Shown here in pieces: positions 6,842 to 38,099 of a stretch of DNA of 64,000 bases. This DNA is from Prorocentrum cordatum (lineage: Eukaryota). The DNA is taken from the NCBI GenBank assembly GCA_963575745.1, contig CAUYUJ010000127.1, forward strand, positions 1 to 64,000, in the 5' to 3' direction. A program made the translations under genes and the position numbers. The stretch's first letter is position 1; every line of letters starts with the position of its first letter. The notes below the pieces were generated by a model. That model did no database searches, was not told the DNA's origin, and saw only the letters and a program-made list of their open reading frames with translations.

Positions 6842-9800
6842 ACCAACTCAGCACTGCGCCATCTAGCCACCAGCATCCATCTTCCCAGCTCCACCTCCAA
6901 CTATCGACCTCCCGCGTCCACAAACTCGGCATTATGACCCCCAGCCGCTAGCACCCAACTCCATTTCCACCTCCACCTATTGACCTCCAACCACCAGCTC
7001 AGCACCCTGACCTCTCACATCCAGCATCCGACATCAAAGTTCACACCACCACCCTGACGTCTGACCTGCCCCGACGCCTGCGCCGCCTCCGACTCTGCTC
7101 CTTCTGGCGCCTGCTTTATGCCCGATTGCAGCCCCAGCTACAACAGCGGCCGCCGACTCCAGCTCCCCACCGACTCCAGCTCACCAGCGACTGAATTCAA
7201 TGCACGACCTGCGCGCAGGGAGTTGCGCTTTTGGGCCCACGGCGCACCGGTACCAGGGCCCGTGCCCGTCACCCTGCAGCCTCCGCCCTGGCACGAGGAC
7301 GGCTACCTGAAATACCTGACGTGGTTCCGACGGGCATCATCAGTCGCAGCACCAAGATGGACAGGGAGGTCTCGACATTGATGCCAGGGTGCGACGCCAT
7401 GGTGGCCACGGTGTGAGCCATTCTCCCGCACGCCCGCTCCTTGGCGGGGTCTCCTCCTGTTCCTCCTCACCTTTTGACTGCGCTGTGCGTTTTGGGATTT
7501 TATATAAGTGGCCACTGGGGCCACTGGGGTTTCCCGCGCTGTGCCCCTGCCCCCTCCCCTCCCCCTCCCCTTCGTCTTCCGCGCCCCTTTTTGCTCCCGC
7601 CTCCCGCGCGATAGAAACATTGGCATATTTTCTATCAGCCGCGTCGCCGTACGGGTCGCTTGTTTCTCTGTTGCACTGTGCGCTGTCCTTGCTTTAGTCG
7701 TTGCGTGCTCCCTTTTTATATGAGTCGTCGGTTGGACCGTGTGGGGGTGCACATGCAGCGCCATGGGGCGCTGCAGATGTCACGGGGCCAGTGCGGCGCA
7801 GGTGGCGTTACAATTCTTAAAGTTGTTTTTCACCCAGTCCGGCGTCTCCCTCAGTAAAATATGTTGTAGTCTAGGCGCCGCTGCAGACAGCAGATCAGGG
7901 TATTCAAATTTGAATACCCAGTTAGCCTTGGTTCGCTGAGAATGTCCAGTCTTTAGTGACATGTTGCTGTTGGGCCGCTCAGGGAAAAATTACATATTCG
8001 AGACATTTCGCGTAACCCGACCTGTCCATCCAAAGACGATGCCCAGGCGAGTGTAGGAGCACGCAGTGGAATAGCGGGCTGCGGAAGCCTTCGTACCCCA
8101 AGAGGGAGCGGATGGAGGAGGAATCGGAAGAGGAGACGGGGGAAGCGAGCTTCCCAGGCTGCAGCCTTCGGCACGCGGGCTGTGGGGCCTCTGGCGGAGG
8201 CTACTTTCGCACGGCGCCGAGTGCTGTTTCTCTGAAGAGGCCCGAGACGAGCGGCTCCAGGCTGAGGCTGCTCTGTCGCCAGGTCTGGCCTGTCCCGTCG
8301 AAGAAGAAACAGCTGCAGAAACATGGTGCCTCGCGGGCCCGCGCGGTTCTTGGATCGGCGCTGGGCCCTGTGGGGGGTGCGATGAAGTCGTTCTGCGCCG
8401 CGCCAGTTTTGGCCCGACCCATGGAAGACCAAACACTTGCATACTACATTGAGCATTGCATCCGCAAACCACGCACAACCATTCTCCCGGTTTGGCGACA
8501 ACGCGACATCGGCGAGCCGCGTGCACAAGTTTGGAATGTTCGAGCGATGCGTTGAATTGTCCACCTCCACCTGTCGACTTTCAACTTCTACCAACTCAGC
8601 ACTGCGCCATCTAGCCACCAGCATCCATCTTCCCAGCTCCACCTCCAACTACCGACCTCCCGCGTCCACGAACTCGGCATTATGACCCCCAGCCGCTAGC
8701 ACCCAACTCCACTTCCACCTCCACCTATTGACCTCCAACCTCCACCAGCTCAGCACCCTGACCTCTCACATCCAGCATCCGACATCAAAGTTCACACCAC
8801 CCCCCTGACGTCTGACCTGCCCCGACGCCTGCGCCGCCTCCGACTCTGCTCCTTCTGGCGCCTGCTTTATGCCCGATTGCAGCCCCAGCTACAACAGCGG
8901 CCGCCGACTCCAGCTCCCCACCGACTCCAGCTCACCAGCGATTGAATTCAGTGCACGACCTGCGCGCAGGGGGTTGCGCTTTTGGGCCCACGGCGCACCG
9001 GTACCAGGGCCCGTGCCCGTCACCCTGCAGCCTCCGCCCTTGCACGAGGACGGCTACCTGAAATACCTGACGTGGTTCCGACGGGCATCATCAGTCGCAG
9101 CACCAAGATGGACAGGGAGGTCTTGACATTGATGCCAGGGTGCGACGCCATGGTGGCCACGGTGTGAGCCATTCTCCCGCACGCCCGCTCCTTGGCGGGG
9201 TCTCCTCCTGTTCCTCCTCACCTTTTGACTGCGCTGTGCGTTTTGGGATTCTATATAAGTGGCCACTGGGGCCACTGGGGTTTCCCGCGCTGTGCCCCTG
9301 CCCCCTCCCCTCCCCCTCCCCTTCGTCTTCCGCGCCCCTTCTTGCTCCCGCCTCCCGCGCGATAGAAACCTGGGCATATTTTCTATCAGCCGCGTCGCCG
9401 TGCGGGTCGCTTGTTTCTCTGTTGCACTGTGCGCTGTCCTTGCTTTAGTCGTGGCGCGTTTCCTTTTTATACGAGTCGTCGGTTGGACCGTGTGGGGGCG
9501 CACATACAGCGCCATGGGGCGCTGCAGATGTCACGGGGCCAGTGCGGCGCAGTTGGCGTTACAATTCTTAAAGTTGTTTTTCACCCAGTCCGGCGTCTCC
9601 CTCTGTAAAATATGTTGTAATTTAGGCGCCGCTGCAGACAGCAGATCAGGGTATTCAAATTTGAATACCCACTTAGCCTTGGTTTGCTGAGAAAGTCCAG
9701 TCTTTAGTGACATGTTGCTGTTGGACCGCTCAGGGAAAAATTACAGATTCGAGTCATTTCGCGTAACCCGACCTGTCCATCCAAAGACGATGCCCAGGCG

Positions 9801-14383: not shown

Positions 14384-14494
14384 GACGCCGCCTGCTGCGC
14401 CACGTTCGGCTGCGAGGGGGCATACGACGTGGCCCAGCCCTGCCAGTGCAACAGCAGGTGCGAGGAGTTCTCGAACTGCTGCCCGGACTTCCAG
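14384..14494 (+). CDS. Exon encoding a somatomedin-B (SMB)-like cysteine-rich domain
   Basis: DAACCATFGCEGAYDVAQPCQCNSRCEEFSNCCPDFQ matches the SMB core C-x-C-x3-C-x5-CC-x-D-[YF]. GAG|G acceptor, CAG|GC donor, 111 nt, almost all codons end in G/C. Confidence 0.8.
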
Positions 14495-14591
14495 GCCCGT
14501 CCTCGCTTTGCCCATCAAGACCTCGAGGAGATTTGGAAGAGGAAGAGGAGGAAGAGCAGGAGGAGGAAGACGAGGTGGATGATGATAATGC

Positions 14592-14613
14592 TCCGTAGCC
14601 CTTTTGGCTCAAG
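14592..14613 (+). other. Relic dinoflagellate spliced leader
   Basis: TCCGTAGCCCTTTTGGCTCAAG matches DinoSL DCCGTAGCCATTTTGGCTCAAG at 21 of 22 positions. Confidence 0.9.
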
Positions 14614-15354: not shown

Positions 15355-18118
15355 ATGCCGAGCTGCAGATCATGGGTAGCCACCGCTGCTGCGGGTGCCC
15401 CGCTATCCGTCGCTCAACGTCGCCGCCGTGAGCGGGATGCCTGGTATGCTACTTCCCATAGTGCACCTGGGAAGGCATTCGTCGAAGTGGACGTGGTCGA
15501 CAGGGCTGACGTCAAGCGCATGGCCCATGGCAAGGCCCTACACCGCCTTCTCGATGAGGATGGGCTCGCGCACGGACTGCCCCCTGCCGCTTCTGGCAAA
15601 GTCGCTGCGCATCGTGCTCTCCGCCGCGGGACTCTTACTCCTGCTGGCCATGCGGCAGCGCGTTCGACCTTGGAGCTGGCGGACGCCGCCAAGCACCACC
15701 ATCTTTCTCTTCAAGGCACAGCTGTCCATGCTGCGGAGCTACTTGCTGGACGCCGAGCTCCTGCTGGGCATCGGGCCCGTGCTGGAGATCGGGACCGTGT
15801 TGGAGTTGGGGACCCTTCTGGGCTTCGAGACCGTGCTGGACGTCGGGACCCTGCGGGAGATCGTGATCGTCCTGGGCAATTGGACCATCATGCTGCTCCT
15901 CGCCCTCGCTGGGCTGATGCACCTCTTGACAGCGACGATGCCGATGGAGAGCGCGCCCGAACCCCGCCTCGAGCGGGTGGCCAGGCCCTTGCCCACACGT
16001 TGGTGCCCCCCCGCTGTCCCACCTCAAGAGGACAGTGTCCCTCCACGAGAGGAAGACCATGCAGTCGACGCTCCTGCAGGTGATCTTCGTGCGGGTGTCC
16101 GTATGGAGGCCTGCGCCGACGTTGCTACACCTTCCCTGGCGGCGTCTCCTTCGGTTGATTTCCTCTTCTCGTGCATCGGCCAGCTCACGTACACGATGAA
16201 TGAGCTCATCTGCATGATGGCCACATTGCTCGCCGCACACAACGTGACCACCGCCTACTCCAACACCGACTTCCTCACTGCCTACACCAACGACCTGGTG
16301 CACCTGGACAATGGCTCTTTCCTGTCTGACCTCGACTTCGAGACCGAGCTCTGCATCTTCGAGGAACGCGCTCGGCTCCCTGCTGGCGTTCCTGGCTGTG
16401 GTGCTGCCGTTCCGCATACCGCTGATGTTCGGCCTGACGGGTTCGCGGAACCTCCTGGACCTCAAGATGCTCAACACTCTCTTCGTGAGATTATTCCCGC
16501 TAATGGTTCTGCTGGTGGCGCCCCTCTCCCTGCTCTTGGTGACGTTGCCGACCTCCCTGGCTCAGGCTCTGCGGGTGGCTATGCTGCTCCTCCTGCTGCA
16601 TGCGCTGTGCCTCCGGAAGCTCGTGTCGATCCTGGCCCTCACATCCGGCGTGCTGAGCATAGTGCTCCTCTGGTTCCTGACCCCGCTGACCCTCAACAAA
16701 ATCATTTGGGTGATGCGCCTGCCACTGCGGATGGTGGTCGTCTGGTTGCTGCTCGCGCTCCTCACGGCGGTTGCGCTGCTGCTGTTGCCCCTGCCCTTCC
16801 TCATTGGCACCGTGCTCGTGCCACGCGCGACTTCTACTGCCTGAAGGTCCTCCATGTGGGCCCGAGGATCTCGACTCGTACGGCATGCCGCTACCACCCG
16901 CGCTGTTCATTCGGAAATGACTGCAGCAACTCCCACCTGACAGAGCTGACCGACGAGGCTCTTGCCGCTGAGCATGCGCGCCTTTGCCGCCTCCAGCCTG
17001 AGTGTGCCGACGCTCAGCCGCTGACCGTGGAGCTCTGGCTGGCTCGGGCTGCCGGCCGCACTGCCCCGGAGGTGCACGCCTTGACTGGGCTAGCCGCTGC
17101 TCCTGCGTTTGACGCTGGCGCCAGTGCACATGCTGTCCTCCTAACTGCTCCGCCATCTGTCACCAAGGTTGAGACTGACGACCTGTCTCTCAACATGTCG
17201 GGGCCTCCGCATCAAGGTAGTGGACACCATAGTCCTCGGCCTCACTTACATGGGGATGTAGAGCCTACTGGTATTCTGGGCCTTTCTGCTGACGATGGTG
17301 CTGCTGAGGGTCCTGCCGCGGCTGATCACCCTCTCCCTGAGCTTCTTCCTCCACCAGACGATGCTGCTGGCGGGCTTTCTCTTCATCAACTTCCTGCTGA
17401 GCTTCTGCCTCATGAGAGTTGCGCTGCTGCGGGTCCTGCCGATGCTGGTCATGCTCTCCCTGAGCATCCTCCTCGACCAGACGATGCTGCTGGCGCACTC
17501 GCTGTACTTCCACCCCATGATGGGCTTCAGCTTCACGTCGACGGGGCTGCTGCAGGTCCTGCCGCTGCTGGTCACACTCAGCACACACATACGCCTCCTG
17601 CGGGACATCTTCCTCCACCTGACGGCGCTGGGCGGCCTCCCCCTGTAGGCGCTGCGCTGCTACTCCCTGGGCAAGGGCTCCATGGCGCAGGCGCTGATGA
17701 CCAAGGGTGCGATTTGGGTCCCATCGCTGCCAGCACTGCGGGGCAGAGCGTGCGTGATACAGAAGTTGGTGTGCACCTCAATGGGCGTGTGATGCCTGGC
17801 GCACGCTTCTTTCGGCATAACGATCTACTGCAGCCTCGCTCATGCAGCAAGGCTCTCCTCGCTCACGTCGACTTCCTTATCGTGCGCGGCATCACCGACC
17901 CGTGCGGCGTCATGGAGGCCGTCTCCTTCTACTCGGCGGGGGCTCCCCCCGCCTTCGTCTCTGCCCCTGCGGGCGCGGAGATCGACACAGACACACCAAA
18001 CTTCACGTTCGATGAGACGCCTGCAGTGAACACGTTCTCGACCGCCGTCGATGTCACCACCCCCGACCGCTACGCCATGCCCCTGAGAGGCTCAGAGGGT
18101 GCGCGGCGCGCGGCTTAG
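15355..18118 (+). CDS. Intronless Ala/Pro/Gly-rich protein with a CCCH zinc finger, split by a +1 shift near the C7 run at 16006-16012 (~920 aa if joined); probably mobile-element encoded
   Basis: Frame A (ATG 15355 to stop 16083) reads protein-like up to the C7 run and frame B (to stop 18118) after it. CRYHPRCSFGNDCSNSH (C-x5-C-x5-C-x3-H) lies at 16886-16936. No RT or endonuclease motifs seen. Confidence 0.55.
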
Positions 18119-18825: not shown

Positions 18826-18898
<73 letters not shown>

Positions 18899-29541: not shown

Positions 29542-30884
29542 GCGGGGCCTCCTTCCTCCGCCTCGCCTCCGGGAGTGGGGGGGGAAGGGGAAGGGGGAGG
29601 AGGAGGAGGAGGAGGGGGGGGGAGAGAGGAGAGGAGGAGGAGGAGGAGGAGAGGAGGAGGAGGAGGAGGAGGAGGAGGAGGAGGAGGAGGAGGAGGAGGA
29701 GGAGGAGGAGGAGGACGAGGAGGAGGAGGACGAGGAGGAGGAGGAGGAGGAAGAGGAGGAGGAGGAGGACGAGGCGGACGAGGAGGAGGAGGACGAGGAG
29801 GAGGAGGAGGAGGGAGGAGGAGGAGGAGGACGAGGAGGAGGAGGAGGACGAGGCGGAGGAGGAGGAGGAGGAGGAGGTGTAGGGGTAGGGGCCAGTGGCG
29901 CTGCTGGTGCCGATCGGACCACATTTCAAGAGAAGACCTTCGCTGCCGCTGCTCTCGTTCGGACTTGCTCAGGACTTTGGGGACCACCCCATTCGCCAGG
30001 CGACCTATATATTCACGCCCCGCACGTGTGGGGGGCGCACAGAGCTTGCCCGGAGACCAAAGCTGCTCATGAGCGATACCCCCGCAAGGCCCCCCAAAAC
30101 CATAAATGCAGAGGGAGGGAGGGGGTGAAGGAGAAGAAGAAAGCCCTCTCAGAAGGCGTTGGGGTTTCTCAGAAGCCCTCTGGCTTTCTGTGAAGTGTTC
30201 TGTGTTTTCGGGGTAGTCTTAGAAACTTTCTCAGAAGGCCAGTGAACTTCCGAGCCTTCTGAGAAGGCCCGCCCCCTTTCAGTCACTCCCCCACCCAGGC
30301 TAGCCGCCGAGGGAGGGCGGGGGTGAGGGAGGAGGGGGGGAGGAGGAGGAACTCTACCGCATCGCCCTGGAGCTCTACACCGTGCTCGCGCGGCTCGTGG
30401 TGGATAGTGTAGTTGGGGTGAAGAGAAGCCCTTCAGTACGGAGGAGGAGGGATAGGAAGAGGAATAGGAGGCAGAGGAGGAGGATGAGGAGCAGGGAAAG
30501 ATGCAGACGAGGAGGACCATGCTAATGATGATGAGGACGAGGATAGTGGTAAAGATGATGCTGATGATGATCATCATGGTGGTGATGTTGATGATGGTGA
30601 TGGTGATGGTGCTTATGTGATGCTGCTGCTGATAGTGCCGGTCATGATTGTGATGTTGATGCTGGCAGTGGTGATGTTGAGCAGGAGGAGGTGGAGGAGG
30701 AGGAGGCAGAGGAGGAGGAGGAGGAGGAGGAGGAGGAGGAGGAGGAGACGGAGGATGAGGGCAAGAAGAGGAGAGGGGAGGAGGCCCCTTCCTCCTCCTC
30801 CTCACCTCCTCCTCCTCCTCTCCTCCTCCTCCTCCTCCTCCTCCTCCTCCTCTCCTCCTCCTCCTCCTCCTCCTCCTCCTCCTC

Positions 30885-30906
30885 CCCGTTGCCATTTTGG
30901 CTCAAG
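30885..30906 (+). other. Dinoflagellate spliced leader at the LINE 5' end
   Basis: CCCGTTGCCATTTTGGCTCAAG matches DinoSL at 20 of 22 positions with the last 16 nt perfect; 93 nt separate it from the ORF1 ATG. Confidence 0.92.
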
Positions 30907-30999
30907 ATCGGGACAGGCCCGTTTTGAGTGAGGCAGCCCTTCCTCCAGGGCCTCCCAGCTGTCAAAGGCTGGCGGACACTCCCACCACCAGTGCGTCTC

Positions 31000-32184
31000 A
31001 TGGCTGATGCAGTCCCTGCCGCGCCTGCCAGTACCCAGGAGCGCCAGATGCTTGCTGAGCTTGAAGAGATGCCCACCTTCCCCGACGGCGAGCGCTCGGG
31101 CAAAGGCCAGGGGACGGGCCGCTTCACCCAGCGCAAGCGCCAGGCCCTCGCTTCGTCCAGTGCCGGTGCCCCTGTTCCCTCTCCTCACGATGATGACGAT
31201 GATGATGGTGACTTTCTTCGGCAGCTGTGCAGAGAGGAGTTTGCCTCAATGCGCGACACCATCACCACCGAGGTGTCAGAGTCGGTCGCCAAGACCATCA
31301 CCTCCAATCACAACACGTTGCTCAAGATGTTGTCCTCCATGCAGGGCGAGGTGGCAAAACAATCCAGTGCCATCGAGGGCCAGGTTCAATCGGCGATTGC
31401 CCCCAGGCTCGACTCGCTCAACAGACGCCTCCAAGCCCAGCTCGACGAGCAGAAGCGCAGCATCGACGCGCTGGAGGGCAGAGCTGACGGGCATGACAAG
31501 TCCATCCAGGATCTTCAAGACCAGCTGGCGGAGCTACGTCGCCAGATGGCCATCGCTGAACAGACTCCCAGGAAGCAGCTGGCTGCTCCCACATCCTTCG
31601 ACCGCGAGGAGGACACCACGATCGTCGTTGCCGTCTCGCAGCGACCGACTACCCTGGCATCAGTGGTCTCATCGCTGCGCCCATGGCTCGGCGAGATTGG
31701 CTTTGATGATGAACAGTATGAGATCAAGCAGAAAGGCGAGTCCCCGGCCAGGAGGTTCGAGATCTGTTTCTCGGGCTCGGCCACCATCGCCTCGCGCCGC
31801 GCCAGCAAGACCACCTCGCTCCTCAAGGGACCCGACGGCTGGAAAGAGTTCTGGGTCGACCCACCAGGCGCTGAGCGTTGCCGTTTGCACCTCGGCCCCG
31901 ACAAGTCGCCCAAGCGTATCAAGACCGAGGTTACCCTGCGCAAGGCCAGGGCTATCGTCGAGCTGCAGTACCCAGGCAAGCGATTCTACTCCGACAGCGA
32001 GCATGGCGTCCTCTCCATTGGGTGGGACAAGATCATGCATGTCAATGTCTTCCACGGCGACACCCCGCCCAAGATCTACTGGGACTCTGCGCAGCTTGCC
32101 AAGCACGCCATGGCTATCGACACGCTTCGCAATGCTGTCAAGGAGCTCACGCATCCGTCCGACCCCAGCCAGTGGTGTCTTTAG
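31000..32184 (+). CDS. LINE ORF1 protein (394 aa): coiled coil plus probable RRM/CTD-like region
   Basis: First ATG after the SL; heptads LDSLNRRLQAQLDEQKRSIDALEGR..IQDLQDQLAELRRQM; L1-ORF1p-like layout (RLHLGPDKSP); lies directly before APE-RT. Confidence 0.85.
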   Translation: MADAVPAAPASTQERQMLAELEEMPTFPDGERSGKGQGTGRFTQRKRQALASSSAGAPVPSPHDDDDDDGDFLRQLCREEFASMRDTITTEVSESVAKTITSNHNTLLKMLSSMQGEVAKQSSAIEGQVQSAIAPRLDSLNRRLQAQLDEQKRSIDALEGRADGHDKSIQDLQDQLAELRRQMAIAEQTPRKQLAAPTSFDREEDTTIVVAVSQRPTTLASVVSSLRPWLGEIGFDDEQYEIKQKGESPARRFEICFSGSATIASRRASKTTSLLKGPDGWKEFWVDPPGAERCRLHLGPDKSPKRIKTEVTLRKARAIVELQYPGKRFYSDSEHGVLSIGWDKIMHVNVFHGDTPPKIYWDSAQLAKHAMAIDTLRNAVKELTHPSDPSQWCL

Positions 32185-35100
32185 CGCTGCTGGACTATTT
32201 CATCTTCCTCCCCCGCCGCCTGGGTCAGCGGCGCCTACGTTTCGGATTGCTACTTGGAATTCTCGGGCGCTTCTTCAGGCTGGTGGGGACAAGGCCATTC
32301 TGAAGAGAAAGTATGTTCTCAGTCTCCGTCCCCTCTCCACGGTCATCGCGCTGCAGGAGGTGCACCAGGACCACTTCCAGCTCGACTCGTTCTTCAGATC
32401 GATCGCGTCAGGCCTCACGATCCACTCCAGCTTCATTTCCGACGCAGATGACGGGCATCGGCGGGGTGGGGTTGCTGTGGTGCTCCCGCCGTTGGCTTGT
32501 CAGGGCTTCTCCGCTCCGTCGTCATCCTCCACTGTCCTGGTACCTGGCCGAGCGATGCTAGTCCGTGTTTGGGATGACTGCCGCACGCTCGACATCTTCA
32601 ACATTCACAATCATGGTCTGTCCGCCCAGCAGGTTCGCGAAGTGGCTACCGCGATACGAGTATCGCAACGTGCTGCTGCCCTCGACCCCGACATGTACAC
32701 CACCTTTGTCCTCGGGGACTTCAATTTTGCCACGCGCGAGGCTCTCGCGCTCGCTGCCCCCGCGGCGGCCGTGCGCAAGCTGTCGAAGTGCCACCACGTG
32801 CAGGCGCCCAAGTGGCGCCAGGCCCTCGCCCTCCTGACAGAGATTGCGTGCGAGGACCCTACGCACTACGAGAAGTTCAACGACTCGTGCGCGACGATCG
32901 ACCGCGTCTTCTGCTCGATCACGGGCTGGCAGCTCTGCCAGTTGTATGTCCAGATTGGCACGCTTGGCACGCCAGCGGCCGTCTTTGACAAAAAGATCTC
33001 TGACCATGCTGCTGTTGTTCTCTCGCTTGCCTGCCGCCCGCCTCGACCAGTGGAGTCCCGCCCCATTCCCAAACACCTGTTCTCGGAGCCTGGTTTCAAG
33101 CGGCGCCTGGAGGGGCTGTGCTCCTGCATCCCGTGGGACTCCATGTCGCCCCCGTTCCAGGTTGAAAAGTACAAGGAGCTTTTGAAGATTTCGGCCGCGG
33201 AGACCAGGGACACCCTCTTTCGGGACAGGCCGCATCACCCGCGCACCTGCCTCCTGCTCGCTCGTGCTCTGGCCCGTGTGGTTTGGAGGCAAGACCTGCG
33301 TATGGCTTCCAGGCTCCAGGACTCCCACCCCCTGGCCATTGACATGATATCGATCACCGACGGGAAGGTCGAGCTCCGCCACCCGCCGTCCTTCCAGGCC
33401 TGGGTCGACCAAGTCCAGACTGAGGCTGCTGAGTCCGCGAAGGCTGAGCTTGAAGATCGCAGACGGCGTGAAGGTGACCGCGTCCAGATTCGTGCCCAGG
33501 TTCGCGCGCTTGAACGGCGTGCTCGTCTCTGGTCCCCTCTCAATCGAAGGATATCGCTCTCAGCGGTTATTGCGCCAGATGGCTCTGCGGTCAGCGTTCC
33601 ATCTGACCGTCTTCGGGTGCTCTCGGAGCACTGGGCCCCTGTCTTCCAGAAAAAGCCGTGGGACGTTGCTGCTGCTGCTCCCTACCTTCGCCGCCTTGCT
33701 CCTGACCTTCCTGCCGACCTACACCTCCCCCCGCCGTCGAAAAATATGCTACGTCGAGCAATTCGATCTGCCCAACACTCCGCTCCTGGGCCTGATGCTC
33801 TCCCGCATGCTGCGTGGGCGGCGTCCTCTTGGGGGGCTGACATATTATGGGACGCTCTTGGCTGGGTACTCAGGGGCCAAGAGCTATTTGCGAATACTAG
33901 TGACACGATCCAGATTTTTCTGCCCAAAAACGTCACGGACTTGGAGCTCCGCGATGCCAGCTGTTCCCGCTCCCCCGGCAAGGTTCGAGTCCTGGGCCTC
34001 AGGAACTGTGACCTGAAGCGCATCTCATCCACCGTCAATCGGGCGATCCGACCTGCCCTGGTATCCCTCGCCCCGCCGTGCCAGCGTGGATTCATACCGG
34101 GTAGGAATTTCGGCAACAACATCCTCGAGCTCGACGTATCGAGTCGTCAGATGTCGGTCGTACCTCACGGGTCTACCGATATCCCTGTGCTGTATTCCTT
34201 GGACTTCGGCCAGGCCTTCCCGTCTCTGAATCAGGACTTCCTCATTCTCTCCCTTAGGGCCCTCAAGCTGCCCGAAGCATTCGTGTCTTTCGTCGCGTTC
34301 CTATATGCATCGGTGGAAGGGGTTGTCTCGCACCTAGGTTTGCTAGTAGTGCACATCTTCTGGATCCAGAGCGGCATCATCCAAGGTTGTGCCTTATCGG
34401 GCACTCTCTATGCGTTGAGTACGGCTGTCTTCTTGGTCGACCTGGCCTCTCGGGTGGAGGCCGCTGGCCTTGGCCTGGTTCGGGCCTGTGCTGACGACAT
34501 TGGGGGCACGTTATTGGCCATACGGCACCTAGTTCATGTGTATCGGGTTATGCAGATGGCCTCGGACATGGCCAACCTCGCCCTGAAGGTCTCGAAATGC
34601 AAGATTGTCCCGCTGTCTGACAGGTTCTCGCCCGACCTCTCAGCCACAGTCTCCTACTGGGTCTCCCATCTGGTCCCCGAGTGGAGCTCGTTCGAGGTGG
34701 CTCCCAAGCTGCTCTACCTGGGCCTCTGGCTGGGGCCTGCTGTTGTTCCGTCCACTTGTTGGATTGACCCCGTCGCCAAATTGCGTCTCAGGGCCCAAGC
34801 CATCGGGCGGGGAACCACTCCTGCCAGCCTTTCCGCTACACTGTACAGTACTCGGGCCGTCACGACCATTTCTTACGTTGCCCAATTCTGCTGGCCGCCA
34901 TCGTCAGTGTTGCAGCCTGAGTTGGCGACGCTCGCGCAGGTGTTCCGCATCCCGCTCGGCACTTTCGCCCTCGACTTCTGGACGCAGATCGCTCAGTGGG
35001 GCGGCGCGCGCTGCACGCGGTGGGGGCACCTGGCCGTCGCCACCATCACTCGTGCTGCGTTGCGCACTTTCCCAGGCTGGGAGAGGCTCCTCCAGCAGTT

Positions 35101-37210
35101 GCGGAACCACGCGAGCGCCGCCCCGTACGATGCCACCCTGTCCATGCTGGCGACCGGCAAGCCGTGCCCGTCCTTCTGGTTGGCCCCCGCCTTTGTGGAG
35201 AATTTGGCGCTGGCCGCCGCTGGCACCCCTCCCCCTGGCCCGCTGGCCGTCTTTGGTGCTCGTGCTGCCGACGCTGCGCTGGCTGAACTTCGTGAGAGCG
35301 GCCGACTTCGTCCTCGACCTCAGAGAGCTGCTCACGAAGCGCTGCGGGCCTTTGCGATGCTGAACAAGCCCATCACTGACCTCTTCGTGCTCCGCCTGAG
35401 GAAGTTCGCTGGCAGGTCGGCGGGCCTCCTTTCGAACATCGACTGGGGCGAGTGCAAGTGCGTCCTCGCCCGCTGCCCGTGCTCGTGGGCCATGGCCGTC
35501 CTGCGCACTTGGTCTGATGGCTGGATGACTTCGGCCCGTATCATCTCACCTGACGGCCAGAAGCACTGCGTATTTGGTTGTCTAGGCAAACTCGACTCGT
35601 TGCGGCACTACGCGAGATGCCCTGTCATGCACCGTGCCCTTCGGCAGGCTCTCGCGAGACCGTTCCCGCTCCCGTGGATGACCAGATGGGGCCTATCTGA
35701 ACCCTCGCTGGCCACCTTCTCGGCGATGGCTGCCGCATGCAACATGTACAACGAAGCGAGGCTGGCGCCCGTGTGGCCCTTGCCCCCGTCCCTCCTCCGC
35801 AGCTGTGCTCTCGCTGGTGTATGTTCGATGCAGCTCGCGTCACCGCTGAAGTGCTCGGAGATCGACCGCGAGCAGCTCGGCCGTCGGGACTACCTCATTC
35901 GCAGTTCTTCATCATCTTCATCCTCGGGGTCGTCTCCACGGCTCACTCCTGCCGTTTCGTCGTCGGACAGCGACACGGCCACCGTCTCCACAGCCATCGC
36001 CACGATCCCGTCGGACTCCGACGCTGACGATGAACCTCAGCTGCCAGCGACGCCGCCAGCTACGTGCTCTCCTTCGGCTTCGGCGACCTCCCCCCCGCCT
36101 TCCTCCGCGCCCCCGTCGATGGCGCGCTCCTCATCAACTCTGAGGGCGGCCCCATCTCCATCAATGCCTTTGAGAACCTCACAGATGGCGTCCGCCTGCT
36201 CATCAATTTCGCCGCCGGCCCCAATTTCGCCCTGCTCTTGTGTGACGCCGTCCCCGCCAGTGACGTTGTCGTCTACGGGTTCGTATGCCTCGTCGCCTCC
36301 CATCGGCGTTAGATCGCAAGTCCCGTTGTCGTGTTCGGGCTCACTGTCGCCATGTGCTGGATGCCTCGTGACGCCCCAGCTGGGCCCAGGCGTTAGATCG
36401 CAAGACCCGTTGTCGTGTTCGGGCTACACGTCGCCACATGTACGATGCTTCGATGGGGAGCATCTCTCCCGTGGCGTTAGAATGCAAGTCCCGTTGTCGT
36501 GTTCGGGCTCGCCGTCGCCACATGATCGTTGCCGTGATTCGGGACGCTGGTCCGACGGCGTTAGATCGCAAGTCCCGTTGTCGTGTTCGGGCTCGCAGTC
36601 GCCACGTGTCGGACGAAATCCTGGGAATTTGGTGGCTGCACGACGTTCGGCGCGTTCATCGACCCCGGCTTCCGAGCGCTCCACTACACCGATGTCCACG
36701 TGCTTTCCGATGTCGCGCTCCCCTTCGGTGTCGCCGACGGCTCTGATGTCGCCCCCACCGTTGCCCTCTGAGTGCGCTTCGGAAAATGAGCAGCCTGTTT
36801 TATCTTTTCCCCCCCGCACGTCCGTCGCCCTTCGGCAGGCCGCCCTGGCCCCACCTCTCCCTCACGCGTCGCCCTCCTCAGACGAGCCAGATCTGACCTG
36901 TCACGCCACTCTCGAGGCTGGCCTTCCCCCCACCCGTCCTTCGCTCCCGAGTGCTGCCCCTGCCTCTGCTTGCCCCCCGCCTGCTCCCCCTCCCTCCGCG
37001 TTTGTGCCTGTCATGTTTCCCGATGTCTTTTCGTCGCTCGGCCCCTCGAGCTCATCGCTTGTACCATCTCTCGCTGGCGCCATCGCGCCCCGCCTGATTG
37101 AAATAGCCGCTCGCGACGTCTTCATCGCGGGCGGCACCGTGCTGGCCGACTCGGCCGTCAATGGTGCGCCCCGCCCGCCGCCGCCCGACGAGGCGCGCCG
37201 CAGGGGGTAG
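32132..37210 (+). CDS. LINE ORF2: APE endonuclease, reverse transcriptase, CCHC knuckle and long Ser/Pro-rich tail (start uncertain; frame open from ATG 31007)
   Basis: APE motifs ATWN, ALQEVH, VLGDFN, TIDRV, SDH (~32237-33030). RT motifs SAPGPD, QRGFIPGR, LDFGQAF, GIIQGCALS, CADD (34487-98), YLG. C-x3-C-x8-H-x3-C at 35567-35620. Confidence 0.93.
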   Translation: MLSRSSRIRPTPASGVFSAAGLFHLPPPPPGSAAPTFRIATWNSRALLQAGGDKAILKRKYVLSLRPLSTVIALQEVHQDHFQLDSFFRSIASGLTIHSSFISDADDGHRRGGVAVVLPPLACQGFSAPSSSSTVLVPGRAMLVRVWDDCRTLDIFNIHNHGLSAQQVREVATAIRVSQRAAALDPDMYTTFVLGDFNFATREALALAAPAAAVRKLSKCHHVQAPKWRQALALLTEIACEDPTHYEKFNDSCATIDRVFCSITGWQLCQLYVQIGTLGTPAAVFDKKISDHAAVVLSLACRPPRPVESRPIPKHLFSEPGFKRRLEGLCSCIPWDSMSPPFQVEKYKELLKISAAETRDTLFRDRPHHPRTCLLLARALARVVWRQDLRMASRLQDSHPLAIDMISITDGKVELRHPPSFQAWVDQVQTEAAESAKAELEDRRRREGDRVQIRAQVRALERRARLWSPLNRRISLSAVIAPDGSAVSVPSDRLRVLSEHWAPVFQKKPWDVAAAAPYLRRLAPDLPADLHLPPPSKNMLRRAIRSAQHSAPGPDALPHAAWAASSWGADILWDALGWVLRGQELFANTSDTIQIFLPKNVTDLELRDASCSRSPGKVRVLGLRNCDLKRISSTVNRAIRPALVSLAPPCQRGFIPGRNFGNNILELDVSSRQMSVVPHGSTDIPVLYSLDFGQAFPSLNQDFLILSLRALKLPEAFVSFVAFLYASVEGVVSHLGLLVVHIFWIQSGIIQGCALSGTLYALSTAVFLVDLASRVEAAGLGLVRACADDIGGTLLAIRHLVHVYRVMQMASDMANLALKVSKCKIVPLSDRFSPDLSATVSYWVSHLVPEWSSFEVAPKLLYLGLWLGPAVVPSTCWIDPVAKLRLRAQAIGRGTTPASLSATLYSTRAVTTISYVAQFCWPPSSVLQPELATLAQVFRIPLGTFALDFWTQIAQWGGARCTRWGHLAVATITRAALRTFPGWERLLQQLRNHASAAPYDATLSMLATGKPCPSFWLAPAFVENLALAAAGTPPPGPLAVFGARAADAALAELRESGRLRPRPQRAAHEALRAFAMLNKPITDLFVLRLRKFAGRSAGLLSNIDWGECKCVLARCPCSWAMAVLRTWSDGWMTSARIISPDGQKHCVFGCLGKLDSLRHYARCPVMHRALRQALARPFPLPWMTRWGLSEPSLATFSAMAAACNMYNEARLAPVWPLPPSLLRSCALAGVCSMQLASPLKCSEIDREQLGRRDYLIRSSSSSSSSGSSPRLTPAVSSSDSDTATVSTAIATIPSDSDADDEPQLPATPPATCSPSASATSPPPSSAPPSMARSSSTLRAAPSPSMPLRTSQMASACSSISPPAPISPCSCVTPSPPVTLSSTGSYASSPPIGVRSQVPLSCSGSLSPCAGCLVTPQLGPGVRSQDPLSCSGYTSPHVRCFDGEHLSRGVRMQVPLSCSGSPSPHDRCRDSGRWSDGVRSQVPLSCSGSQSPRVGRNPGNLVAARRSARSSTPASERSTTPMSTCFPMSRSPSVSPTALMSPPPLPSECASENEQPVLSFPPRTSVALRQAALAPPLPHASPSSDEPDLTCHATLEAGLPPTRPSLPSAAPASACPPPAPPPSAFVPVMFPDVFSSLGPSSSSLVPSLAGAIAPRLIEIAARDVFIAGGTVLADSAVNGAPRPPPPDEARRRG
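36305..36640 (+). repeat. Four 84-nt units with a conserved ~37-nt core and variable remainder, inside ORF2
   Basis: GGCGTTAGATCGCAAGTCCCGTTGTCGTGTTCGGGCT at 36305, 36389, 36473 and 36557 (0-2 mismatches). Confidence 0.92.
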
Positions 37211-38099
37211 GCAGGAGCAGTGGATCCTCCTGGTACGCTGGGCTCCTCCTCCTCCTCCTCCTCCTCCTCCTCCTCCTGCTCCTGCTGCTTCTAAGTGCAT
37301 TGTGTCCTGGTTTCCTTTTCACCATCCCTTCTCCCTCGTCCCCCCCCTCTTCGCGTCTCCCGCACTTCCTCCCTCCTCTGCCTCTCCTGCCTCCGTCATA
37401 CCTTCCTGGCTTCTTCCTCCCTTCCTCCTTCCCTGCCCTCTCCTCCTCCCAATTCCCTTTGCTCTCAAAAGGCAGACCTGCAGCCGCTGGCTGGGGGGGA
37501 GGACCAGGCCAGCGCTTCCGCAGCGGAGTCGCTGGTCAGGACTGCCGTGCTCACATGTTCCATCCTCCTCTTGTCCTTCCCTTTGTTCTCTGTCTTCCTT
37601 CTCCTTCTCCTCCTCCTCCTTTTCCTTTCCCTCCCCCTCCTCCTCGTCATACTCCTCATCGTCGTCGTCCTCGTAGTCCTCTTCTTGCTCCGCCTCCTCC
37701 TCCTCCTCCTTTTCCTCCTTTTCCTTCTCTTCCTCCTCCCCATCCTTGTGCCCTCCACCTCAATATTCGTCCTCCTCACCTCCTCATCCTCCTCCTCCTC
37801 TTCCTCCTCCTCCTCCTCCTCCTCCTCCTCCTCCTCCGCAATCTCATCATCCCCCATTCCCACTCCTCTCCTAATCATGATCAATCTTTACCAGTTTTGC
37901 AAACAGCATGAAGCTTTCTCCGCATCCTTGACCTTCATCTCCTCATCCTGCTCACATGTATCTTCCTCCTTCTCCTCCACTTTCTCATCCGCCTGCTCCT
38001 CCCCCTCTGCTTCCGCCTTTCGCTTCCTCCTCCCCCCTCCCCCTCCCCATCCCCGTCGCTCATCCTCCTTTGCCTACCCTTACCCGATGGAGCAATTAT

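Follow-up and report, generated by a model that had tools for sequence, protein, structure and literature searches.

Genes that carry a relic of the dinoflagellate spliced leader (DinoSL) were reportedly described in 2008 by Slamovits and Keeling as a case of mRNA 'recycling'. Such retrogenes are retro-copied and free of introns, and they begin with a DNA-encoded DinoSL 50–100 nt before the ATG (PMC5585692, PMC12014239). Here we analyse a 64,000-nt stretch of Prorocentrum cordatum DNA (contig CAUYUJ010000127.1, positions 1 to 64,000; hereafter the window), in which positions 30,886–37,243 of the plus strand hold a full-length, apparently coding-competent, L1-like long interspersed nuclear element (LINE) with an apurinic/apyrimidinic endonuclease (APE), lying in a (TCC)n microsatellite and headed by a DinoSL that was probably copied from a spliced leader (SL)-trans-spliced template mRNA. 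The element shares with relic-DinoSL retrogenes the DNA-encoded leader and its distance from the start codon; it differs from them in that the leader heads an autonomous LINE, with open reading frame 1 (ORF1), endonuclease and reverse transcriptase (RT), and in that microsatellites flank this unit. In Symbiodinium, 'RNA-dependent DNA replication' is over-represented among genes with an SL tag (Song et al., 2017; PMC5585692), which implies that RT genes with relics were counted there in bulk and not individually examined. No description of a LINE with DinoSL as its own 5' end was found in the portions of the dinoflagellate full-text literature that were searched, supplements aside, and we regard the element as a real and apparently new form of the known SL-tagged retroposition.

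Non-long terminal repeat (non-LTR) elements joined to SL sequence in SL-trans-splicing organisms are also known. SLACS, CZAR, CRE and NeSL-1 insert inside SL-RNA genes, encode a restriction-like endonuclease (RLE) and start behind part of the SL exon, whereas the P. cordatum element has an APE, carries the SL to its last base, has an untranslated region (UTR) of its own and sits in (TCC)n. L1Tc and ingi, too, are LINEs of an SL-trans-splicing host that meet the promoter problem with a very short 5' region; their 5' end contains Pr77, an internal promoter of 77 nt that gives rise to unspliced transcripts (PMC1874656, PMC8190864), in contrast to the SL-spliced template proposed here. Among dinoflagellates, SymbioLINE-Dnmt and other Symbiodinium LINEs are likewise two-ORF elements, but ORF1 of SymbioLINE-Dnmt is a DNA methyltransferase (DNMT), and the available sections of that account make no mention of an SL at the 5' end (PMC5890265). 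In overall plan the element seems closest to L1/Tx1-type LINEs, to judge by its structure and by likeness to Protein Data Bank (PDB) entries: there are two ORFs, APE precedes RT, L1 ORF2p is the nearest protein of known structure, and the likeness to ORF1p is weak. Some members of the Tx1 group target microsatellites. Unlike L1/Tx1-type elements, however, this one lacks both a poly(A) tail and a long, promoter-bearing 5' UTR; it has a 436-aa Ser/Pro-rich C-terminal tail, and its ORF2 is at best about 25–32% identical to proteins outside Prorocentrum.

Results

A spliced leader forms the 5' end of the element

As reference we used the DinoSL consensus DCCGTAGCCATTTTGGCTCAAG, which agrees with published versions (PMC7245778, PMC5585692). 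Positions 30,886–30,906 of the plus strand read CCGTTGCCATTTTGGCTCAAG, with one mismatch to the 21-nt DinoSL core; when SL position 1 is counted, where C30885 stands opposite the consensus D, the match is 20/22. At up to three mismatches the 64-kb window contains two matches to the DinoSL, this one and another at 14,593–14,613, and 100 dinucleotide-preserving shuffles of the window gave a mean of 0.00 matches, none of them containing any. The relic thus spans SL positions 2–22 and makes up the 5' terminus of the insert, which may begin at SL position 2, since C30885 could equally be the final base of the adjoining (TCC)n. That tract (30,786–30,885, plus strand), a polypyrimidine stretch in the upstream flank, has few interruptions and no AG. 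On the other side, a 93-nt 5' UTR (30,907–30,999) separates the end of the SL from the ORF1 ATG at 31,000. Both a DinoSL at 20/22 abutting (CCT)n and the 93-nt distance had been claimed in a sequence-only reading of this DNA, and both stood up in our scan.

The only mismatch in the relic, A to T at 30,890, converts the internal GTAG acceptor to GTTG. The terminal AG (30,905–30,906) is the only AG between 30,784 and 30,906; a scan of 30,780–30,906 returned AG at 30,782 and 30,905 only. The SL stands alone, no truncated relic (CCATTTTGGCTCAAG) being stacked on it, and directly 3' of it follows ATCGGG, which lacks a GT donor. Twelve nucleotides 3' of the SL, positions 30,919–30,933 (CCGTTTTGAGTGAGG) match the relic core CCATTTTGGCTCAAG at 10/15 bases; as an older, decayed relic this is a weak candidate, the window having a background of ~0.86 such matches per kb. 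A further sequence, CCAAGACGGCTCAAG, which occurs three times in the window, proved to be a CCAAGAG-like low-complexity repeat and no SL.

Microsatellites flank the insert on both sides

Upstream of the (TCC)n tract, the host flank carries a (GGA)n arm (30,680–30,785, plus strand) that in an RNA fold pairs with the (TCC)n downstream of it into a hairpin of ~100 bp; the fold of 30,660–30,920 has an energy of −207 kcal/mol (z = −11). From this (GGA)n/(TCC)n hairpin came all of the dozens of sub-threshold miRNA-like matches in an Rfam scan, which we regard as artefacts, and no match to an SL-RNA family was returned in that scan. At the other end, a 33-nt 3' UTR without a poly(A) tail (37,211–37,243, plus strand) ends in ...GGTACGCTGGGC, with no A-run, and passes straight into (TCC)10 and then into degenerate, CT-rich flanking sequence (37,244–37,290). 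The 3' end of the element, set at 37,247 in the sequence-only reading, is therefore better placed at 37,243, with (TCC)n starting at 37,244. The last perfect run upstream is (TCC)11, possibly a target-site duplication, and the downstream (TCC)10 could be either its partner or a microsatellite tail of the element. In this repeat-rich window a perfect 12-nt (CCT)n precedes 1.7% of plus-strand positions, and one is found on both sides, at the spacing of the element, for 13 of 57,642 window positions.

Taken together, these features indicate that the SL most likely arrived with the insert instead of having been in the target, because the unit from SL to 3' UTR is bracketed by (TCC)n on both sides; otherwise the empty site would have had to read (TCC)n-SL-(TCC)n. 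Nor does the locus appear to be an SL-RNA gene, given that ATCGGG is not a GT donor, that the flanks are microsatellites and that Rfam yielded artefacts only; the flank check, with (TCC)n on the 5' side, ATCGGG on the 3' side and no SL-RNA family match, bears out the earlier view that the element is not inserted into such a gene. With its first 21 nt a DNA copy of the DinoSL, the element would have been templated by a mature SL-trans-spliced mRNA, and the SL presumably came from that RNA. The best-kept relic SLs lie at −50 to −100 from the ATG (PMC5585692), a range that includes the 93-nt 5' UTR of the element, which is also of the usual dinoflagellate 5' UTR length.

The element encodes an L1-like ORF2 and a candidate ORF1p

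ORF2 lies in an open frame of 2067 codons without a stop (31,007–37,210, plus strand), shifted by +1 relative to ORF1. The APE domain starts at about 32,237, and the nearest in-frame ATG before it is at 32,132. Pfam scans placed an APE-type endonuclease at 32,312–33,007 (Exo_endo_phos, E = 1.1e-7, 32.3 bits against a cut-off of 24.5) and a reverse transcriptase at 33,974–34,612 (RVT_1, E = 1e-11, above the cut-off), with the active-site ADD motif of the RT in ACADDIGG at 34,484–34,507 (all plus strand). Numbering ORF2 residues from 32,210, we found the catalytic columns of APE and RT, namely E50, D170/N172, D231, S264/H266 (of S-D-H), D665 and A761-D762-D763, to be invariant in alignments with distant relatives of 20–29% identity. 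Compared with the PDB, ORF2 matched five distinct sequences, four of them named human L1 ORF2p and one 'RNA-directed DNA polymerase', at a best E of 2.5e-4. With both ORFs open, both domains above their Pfam cut-offs, the catalytic columns invariant and Exo_endo_phos on the N-terminal side of ORF2, the data uphold the sequence-only reading's description of an intact LINE whose endonuclease is of the APE type and not an RLE.

C-terminal to the RT there was no Pfam match. This region contains a Cys/His motif, HCVFGCLGKLDSLRHYARCP (C-x3-C-x8-H-x3-C; 35,564–35,623, plus strand), which may resemble the C-terminal CCHC motif of L1 ORF2, and C1082 and C1137 are invariant in five distant sequences. 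The protein ends in the Ser/Pro-rich tail of 436 aa (35,903–37,210, plus strand); over 35,540–37,210 the ORF2 frame has 0 stops and the other two frames have 12 and 13. Inside the tail, at 36,297–36,611, self-BLAST revealed imperfect tandem repeats of ~84 nt that are 79–94% alike; other than this internal repeat the element showed no repeats in self-BLAST, and specifically no terminal ones.

ORF1 (31,000–32,184, plus strand) encodes 394 aa. AlphaFold models contain a confident coiled coil at residues 68–187 (predicted local distance difference test score, pLDDT, about 90), followed in the C-terminal part by a beta-alpha-beta-beta-alpha-beta order like that of an RNA recognition motif (RRM), modelled at low confidence (pLDDT 45–68). 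In a Foldseek search of the PDB nothing reached E ≤ 0.001; the human LINE-1 ORF1p trimer filled the top nine rows (E 1.2e-3 to 1.1e-2, at low template modelling scores and from a low-confidence model), and RRM domains came next. A Pfam scan of ORF1 returned coiled-coil-type noise only and no Transposase_22. The models thus give a weak but coherent hint that ORF1 may be an L1-type ORF1p.

The +1 frame relative to ORF1 is free of stops across the whole of ORF1 and has an ATG at 31,007, 7 nt after that of ORF1. Zero stops over this length had a probability of P = 0.009 in a synonymous shuffle and P = 0.0004 in a codon-order shuffle. Six of the nine ORF1 differences between copies change the overlapping frame, whose amino acids are not conserved. 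Chance could account for the open frame, as could leaky scanning, dual coding or some constraint connected with frameshifting.

The element is part of a diverged P. cordatum family with signs of purifying selection

The closest proteins to ORF2 are five Prorocentrum cordatum entries on different contigs, 58–94% identical, and one P. cordatum protein is 86% identical to ORF1; in several of these entries the gene model joins ORF1 to ORF2 by splicing. The G+C content of the window, about 0.6, compares with 59.7% for the P. cordatum genome (PMC10666404). The window itself holds one copy of the element. In a public run (X1), 576 contigs fell on the element at 85–100% likeness (122 at ≥99%, 199 at 95–99%, 168 at 90–95% and 87 below 90%), and two metagenome runs contributed 67 and 48 contigs; the comparison skipped 30,850–30,897 and 37,236–37,300 as repeats, and X1 cover was thin over 36,682–37,300. 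No RNA run was among the sequencing runs listed for the element. The element is a member of a diverged, multi-copy P. cordatum family. Four X1 contigs extend the view of other copies into the 5' UTR, covering 30,954–31,020, and one starts at 30,901, inside the SL. Contigs of the same run skip or repeat 38–152 nt at 36,297–36,611, which suggests that the copy number of the tandem repeat varies between family members.

Differences between copies were synonymous in 7 of 9 cases in ORF1 and 12 of 20 in ORF2, as counted in the 29 translated out of the 40 best-supported differences (the 11 in the tandem repeat being left out, and 928 further ones lying outside the sample). This pattern, which is only indicative, suggests purifying selection between copies and propagation through coding-competent intermediates over many cycles.

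Outside Prorocentrum, ORF2 has relatives in 5698 clusters at E ≤ 1e-3 and in 309 at E ≤ 1e-30; the highest identity among them is 32%. The ten best of them are contigs from metagenome, ENA, NCBI or Logan sources, and the nearest Atlas clusters combine RVT_1 with Exo_endo_phos, some with zf-RVT. Locus scans based on ORF1 found none in metagenome contigs and none in viral contigs. A scan of viral contigs with an ORF2 alignment returned no loci, and a second ORF2 alignment returned 80 distant LINE loci at 20–36% identity. None of these 80 carried a DinoSL (≤3 mismatches, or a 15-nt core at ≤1), which we weigh neither for nor against an SL-headed family. An 8-mer upstream of the APE in one of them, CCGTCACCCGGCTCAAG in L007, was considered as an SL trace and found to be within chance. 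A 19-mer from the 5' UTR had 0 matches in viral contigs and one chance match in a bacterium.

Other features of the window and DinoSL in viral contigs

The second relic DinoSL of the window (14,593–14,613, plus strand; TCCGTAGCCCTTTTGGCTCAAG) also has one mismatch in the 21-nt core. It lies just 3' of a Cys-rich, coding-like stretch (14,400–14,500) and a (GAG/GAA)n run. As the gene behind it we considered an ORF of 893 codons at 15,437–18,118, which we rejected: it has no Pfam match and its translation does not look like that of a coding sequence. From about 18,140 onward the DNA is rich in (CTC)n, and the second relic gave no usable 3' end. Within a very (CTC)n-rich stretch, an ORF at 18,894–20,579 matches MFS_1 (E = 6e-9, above the cut-off); it is on the minus strand, and the LINE thus has at least one host gene nearby that points the opposite way.

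In IMG/VR, 119 loci (L082–L200) contain an exact 21-nt DinoSL, often several per contig, and many of the contigs are named GVMAG. Most have a G+C content of 0.15–0.29. At 7000–7122 of L105, a unit of SL plus 28-nt spacer is repeated in tandem and followed by a third SL. Relatives of ORF1 or ORF2 were absent from these 119 loci (tblastn, 0; hmmsearch over 1160 ORFs, 0). The loci seem to come from an SL-using organism of very high A+T content whose DNA was binned as giant-virus metagenome-assembled genomes, or from viruses with SL relics.

Discussion

How an SL-headed copy might renew its 5' end

The arrangement of this locus can be accommodated by a short cycle. Target-primed reverse transcription of an SL-mRNA would run to the very 5' end of its template, as for the relic-SL 'retrogenes' of the host; the SL-headed copy would then be re-expressed from upstream or read-through transcription, and trans-splicing at the terminal AG of the relic would recreate the exact mRNA of SL plus 5' UTR. 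That SL-headed copies are re-expressed and trans-spliced in this way, as the sequence-only reading had suggested, is a possibility that we rate at somewhat below even odds. Several details fit such renewal: with the internal GTAG mutated to GTTG, the terminal AG is the first to follow some 120 nt rich in pyrimidines, of which ~100 nt are the tract itself; splicing at the internal AG would leave truncated relics stacked, and a single SL is seen without stacking; and, if full-length progeny always bear the SL, long-lived lineages would have to be able to re-create the junction from SL-headed parents. In its widest form the proposal would describe a LINE family without a promoter of its own, whose full-length copies are all headed by DinoSL in (TCC)n and whose read-through RNA is trans-spliced back to a capped, translatable SL plus 5' UTR, the (TCC)n serving as polypyrimidine tract and the last AG of the relic as acceptor. 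We put this forward, too, as a conjecture that is less likely than not.

A number of observations weigh against renewal and against the boundaries on which it draws. The 5' junction was read in one copy, the sole contig near the SL beginning at 30,901, and the change from A to T at 30,890 may be a random mutation of that copy after insertion. (TCC)n is common in the window, so that the supposed target-site duplication is indistinguishable from plain microsatellite or from microsatellite tailing, and a junction beside a microsatellite could equally be an assembly join. The rule that the first AG after the pyrimidine tract is the acceptor was established for trypanosomes, and a search of the literature found no statement on SL acceptor signals in dinoflagellates. 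In the published relic pattern a new SL is followed by CCATTTTGGCTCAAG, which makes the internal AG the usual acceptor (PMC12014239, PMC5585692). The argument of the sequence-only reading that the 5' region leaves little room for an internal promoter has also lost force, because Pr77 is only 77 nt long and the TTT(T/G) motif inside the relic SL has itself been proposed as a core promoter (Song et al., 2017; PMC5585692). As a mechanism deduced from a single locus, renewal is plausible.

Other histories could have produced the same 5' end. SL-headed copies might be dead ends, descended from masters that have a promoter and a native SL acceptor before ATCGGG and no SL in their DNA, in which case the progeny would not be re-expressed with the same 5' end. 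This would be in keeping with the absence of promoters from most retrocopies (general knowledge; PMC12014239) and with the fact that only one copy's 5' end has been seen; but full-length progeny of an SL-mRNA carry the SL, so that over many cycles the masters should carry it too, and the intact ORFs and mostly synonymous differences between copies argue that full-length copies kept propagating. We consider dead-end retrocopies rather unlikely. Less probable still is that the relic SL acts through TTT(T/G) as a portable core promoter, with transcription starting downstream of it and a new SL being added at a downstream AG. Such a role has been proposed for dinoflagellate retrogenes, whose best-kept relics lie 50–100 nt before the ATG, as a hypothesis that comes with no assay in the consulted parts of the two papers concerned (PMC5585692, PMC6050394). 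The present relic retains TTTTG and ends 93 nt before the ATG; however, the 5' UTR would then shorten with each cycle, and the parent mRNA had its SL joined at 30,907, upstream of any start that the motif could set.

It is very improbable that the SL was already in the target, as the relic of an older retrogene, and that an SL-less LINE landed beside it. Although relic SLs are frequent in dinoflagellate DNA, and the window has its second one at 14,593, this history would need an empty (TCC)n-SL-(TCC)n and an insertion exactly at the last base of the SL, and beyond the 3' end there is no gene-like sequence but a CT-rich flank. Just as far-fetched is a template switch of the RT from unspliced LINE RNA to the 5' end of some other SL-bearing RNA. 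SL-bearing RNAs are abundant, and L1 is known to switch templates at its 5' end, for example in U6/L1 chimeras; yet the RT would have had to land precisely on the final SL base and add no nucleotides, which is unlikely, and a 93-nt UTR is typical of a trans-spliced mRNA.

Implications for the recycling of host mRNA

LINEs and Ty1/copia elements have so far only been proposed as the copiers of SL-capped mRNAs in the sources at hand (PMC5585692, PMC6050394, PMC3942190). If the SL came from the template RNA, as we think probable, the element is direct evidence, at the sequence level, that SL-capped RNA can be copied to its very end by a LINE pathway in P. cordatum. The sequence-only reading had gone further and named ORF2 as a candidate enzyme for host mRNA recycling. 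What survives of this is the complete copying of an SL-capped RNA by the LINE pathway; the tie to host mRNAs is only generic, and the element has no poly(A). Lack of a poly(A) tail is a mark of 'stringent' LINEs, whose RT recognises the 3' end of its own RNA and not just any polyadenylated mRNA. By analogy, the missing poly(A) and the microsatellite at the 3' junction suggest, against a part in recycling, that the RT starts synthesis from the element's own 3' end or from (TCC)n, which would limit its action on polyadenylated host mRNAs.

If the SL is constant in the family, it would be host trans-splicing, and not an internal promoter, that restores the 5' end of the LINE in each cycle, a new solution to a long-standing difficulty of LINEs. 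Dinoflagellate genomes are full of relic-SL genes; should the promoter-less reading be true, this family of elements would be the long-sought reverse transcription machinery for SL-capped RNAs in dinoflagellates.

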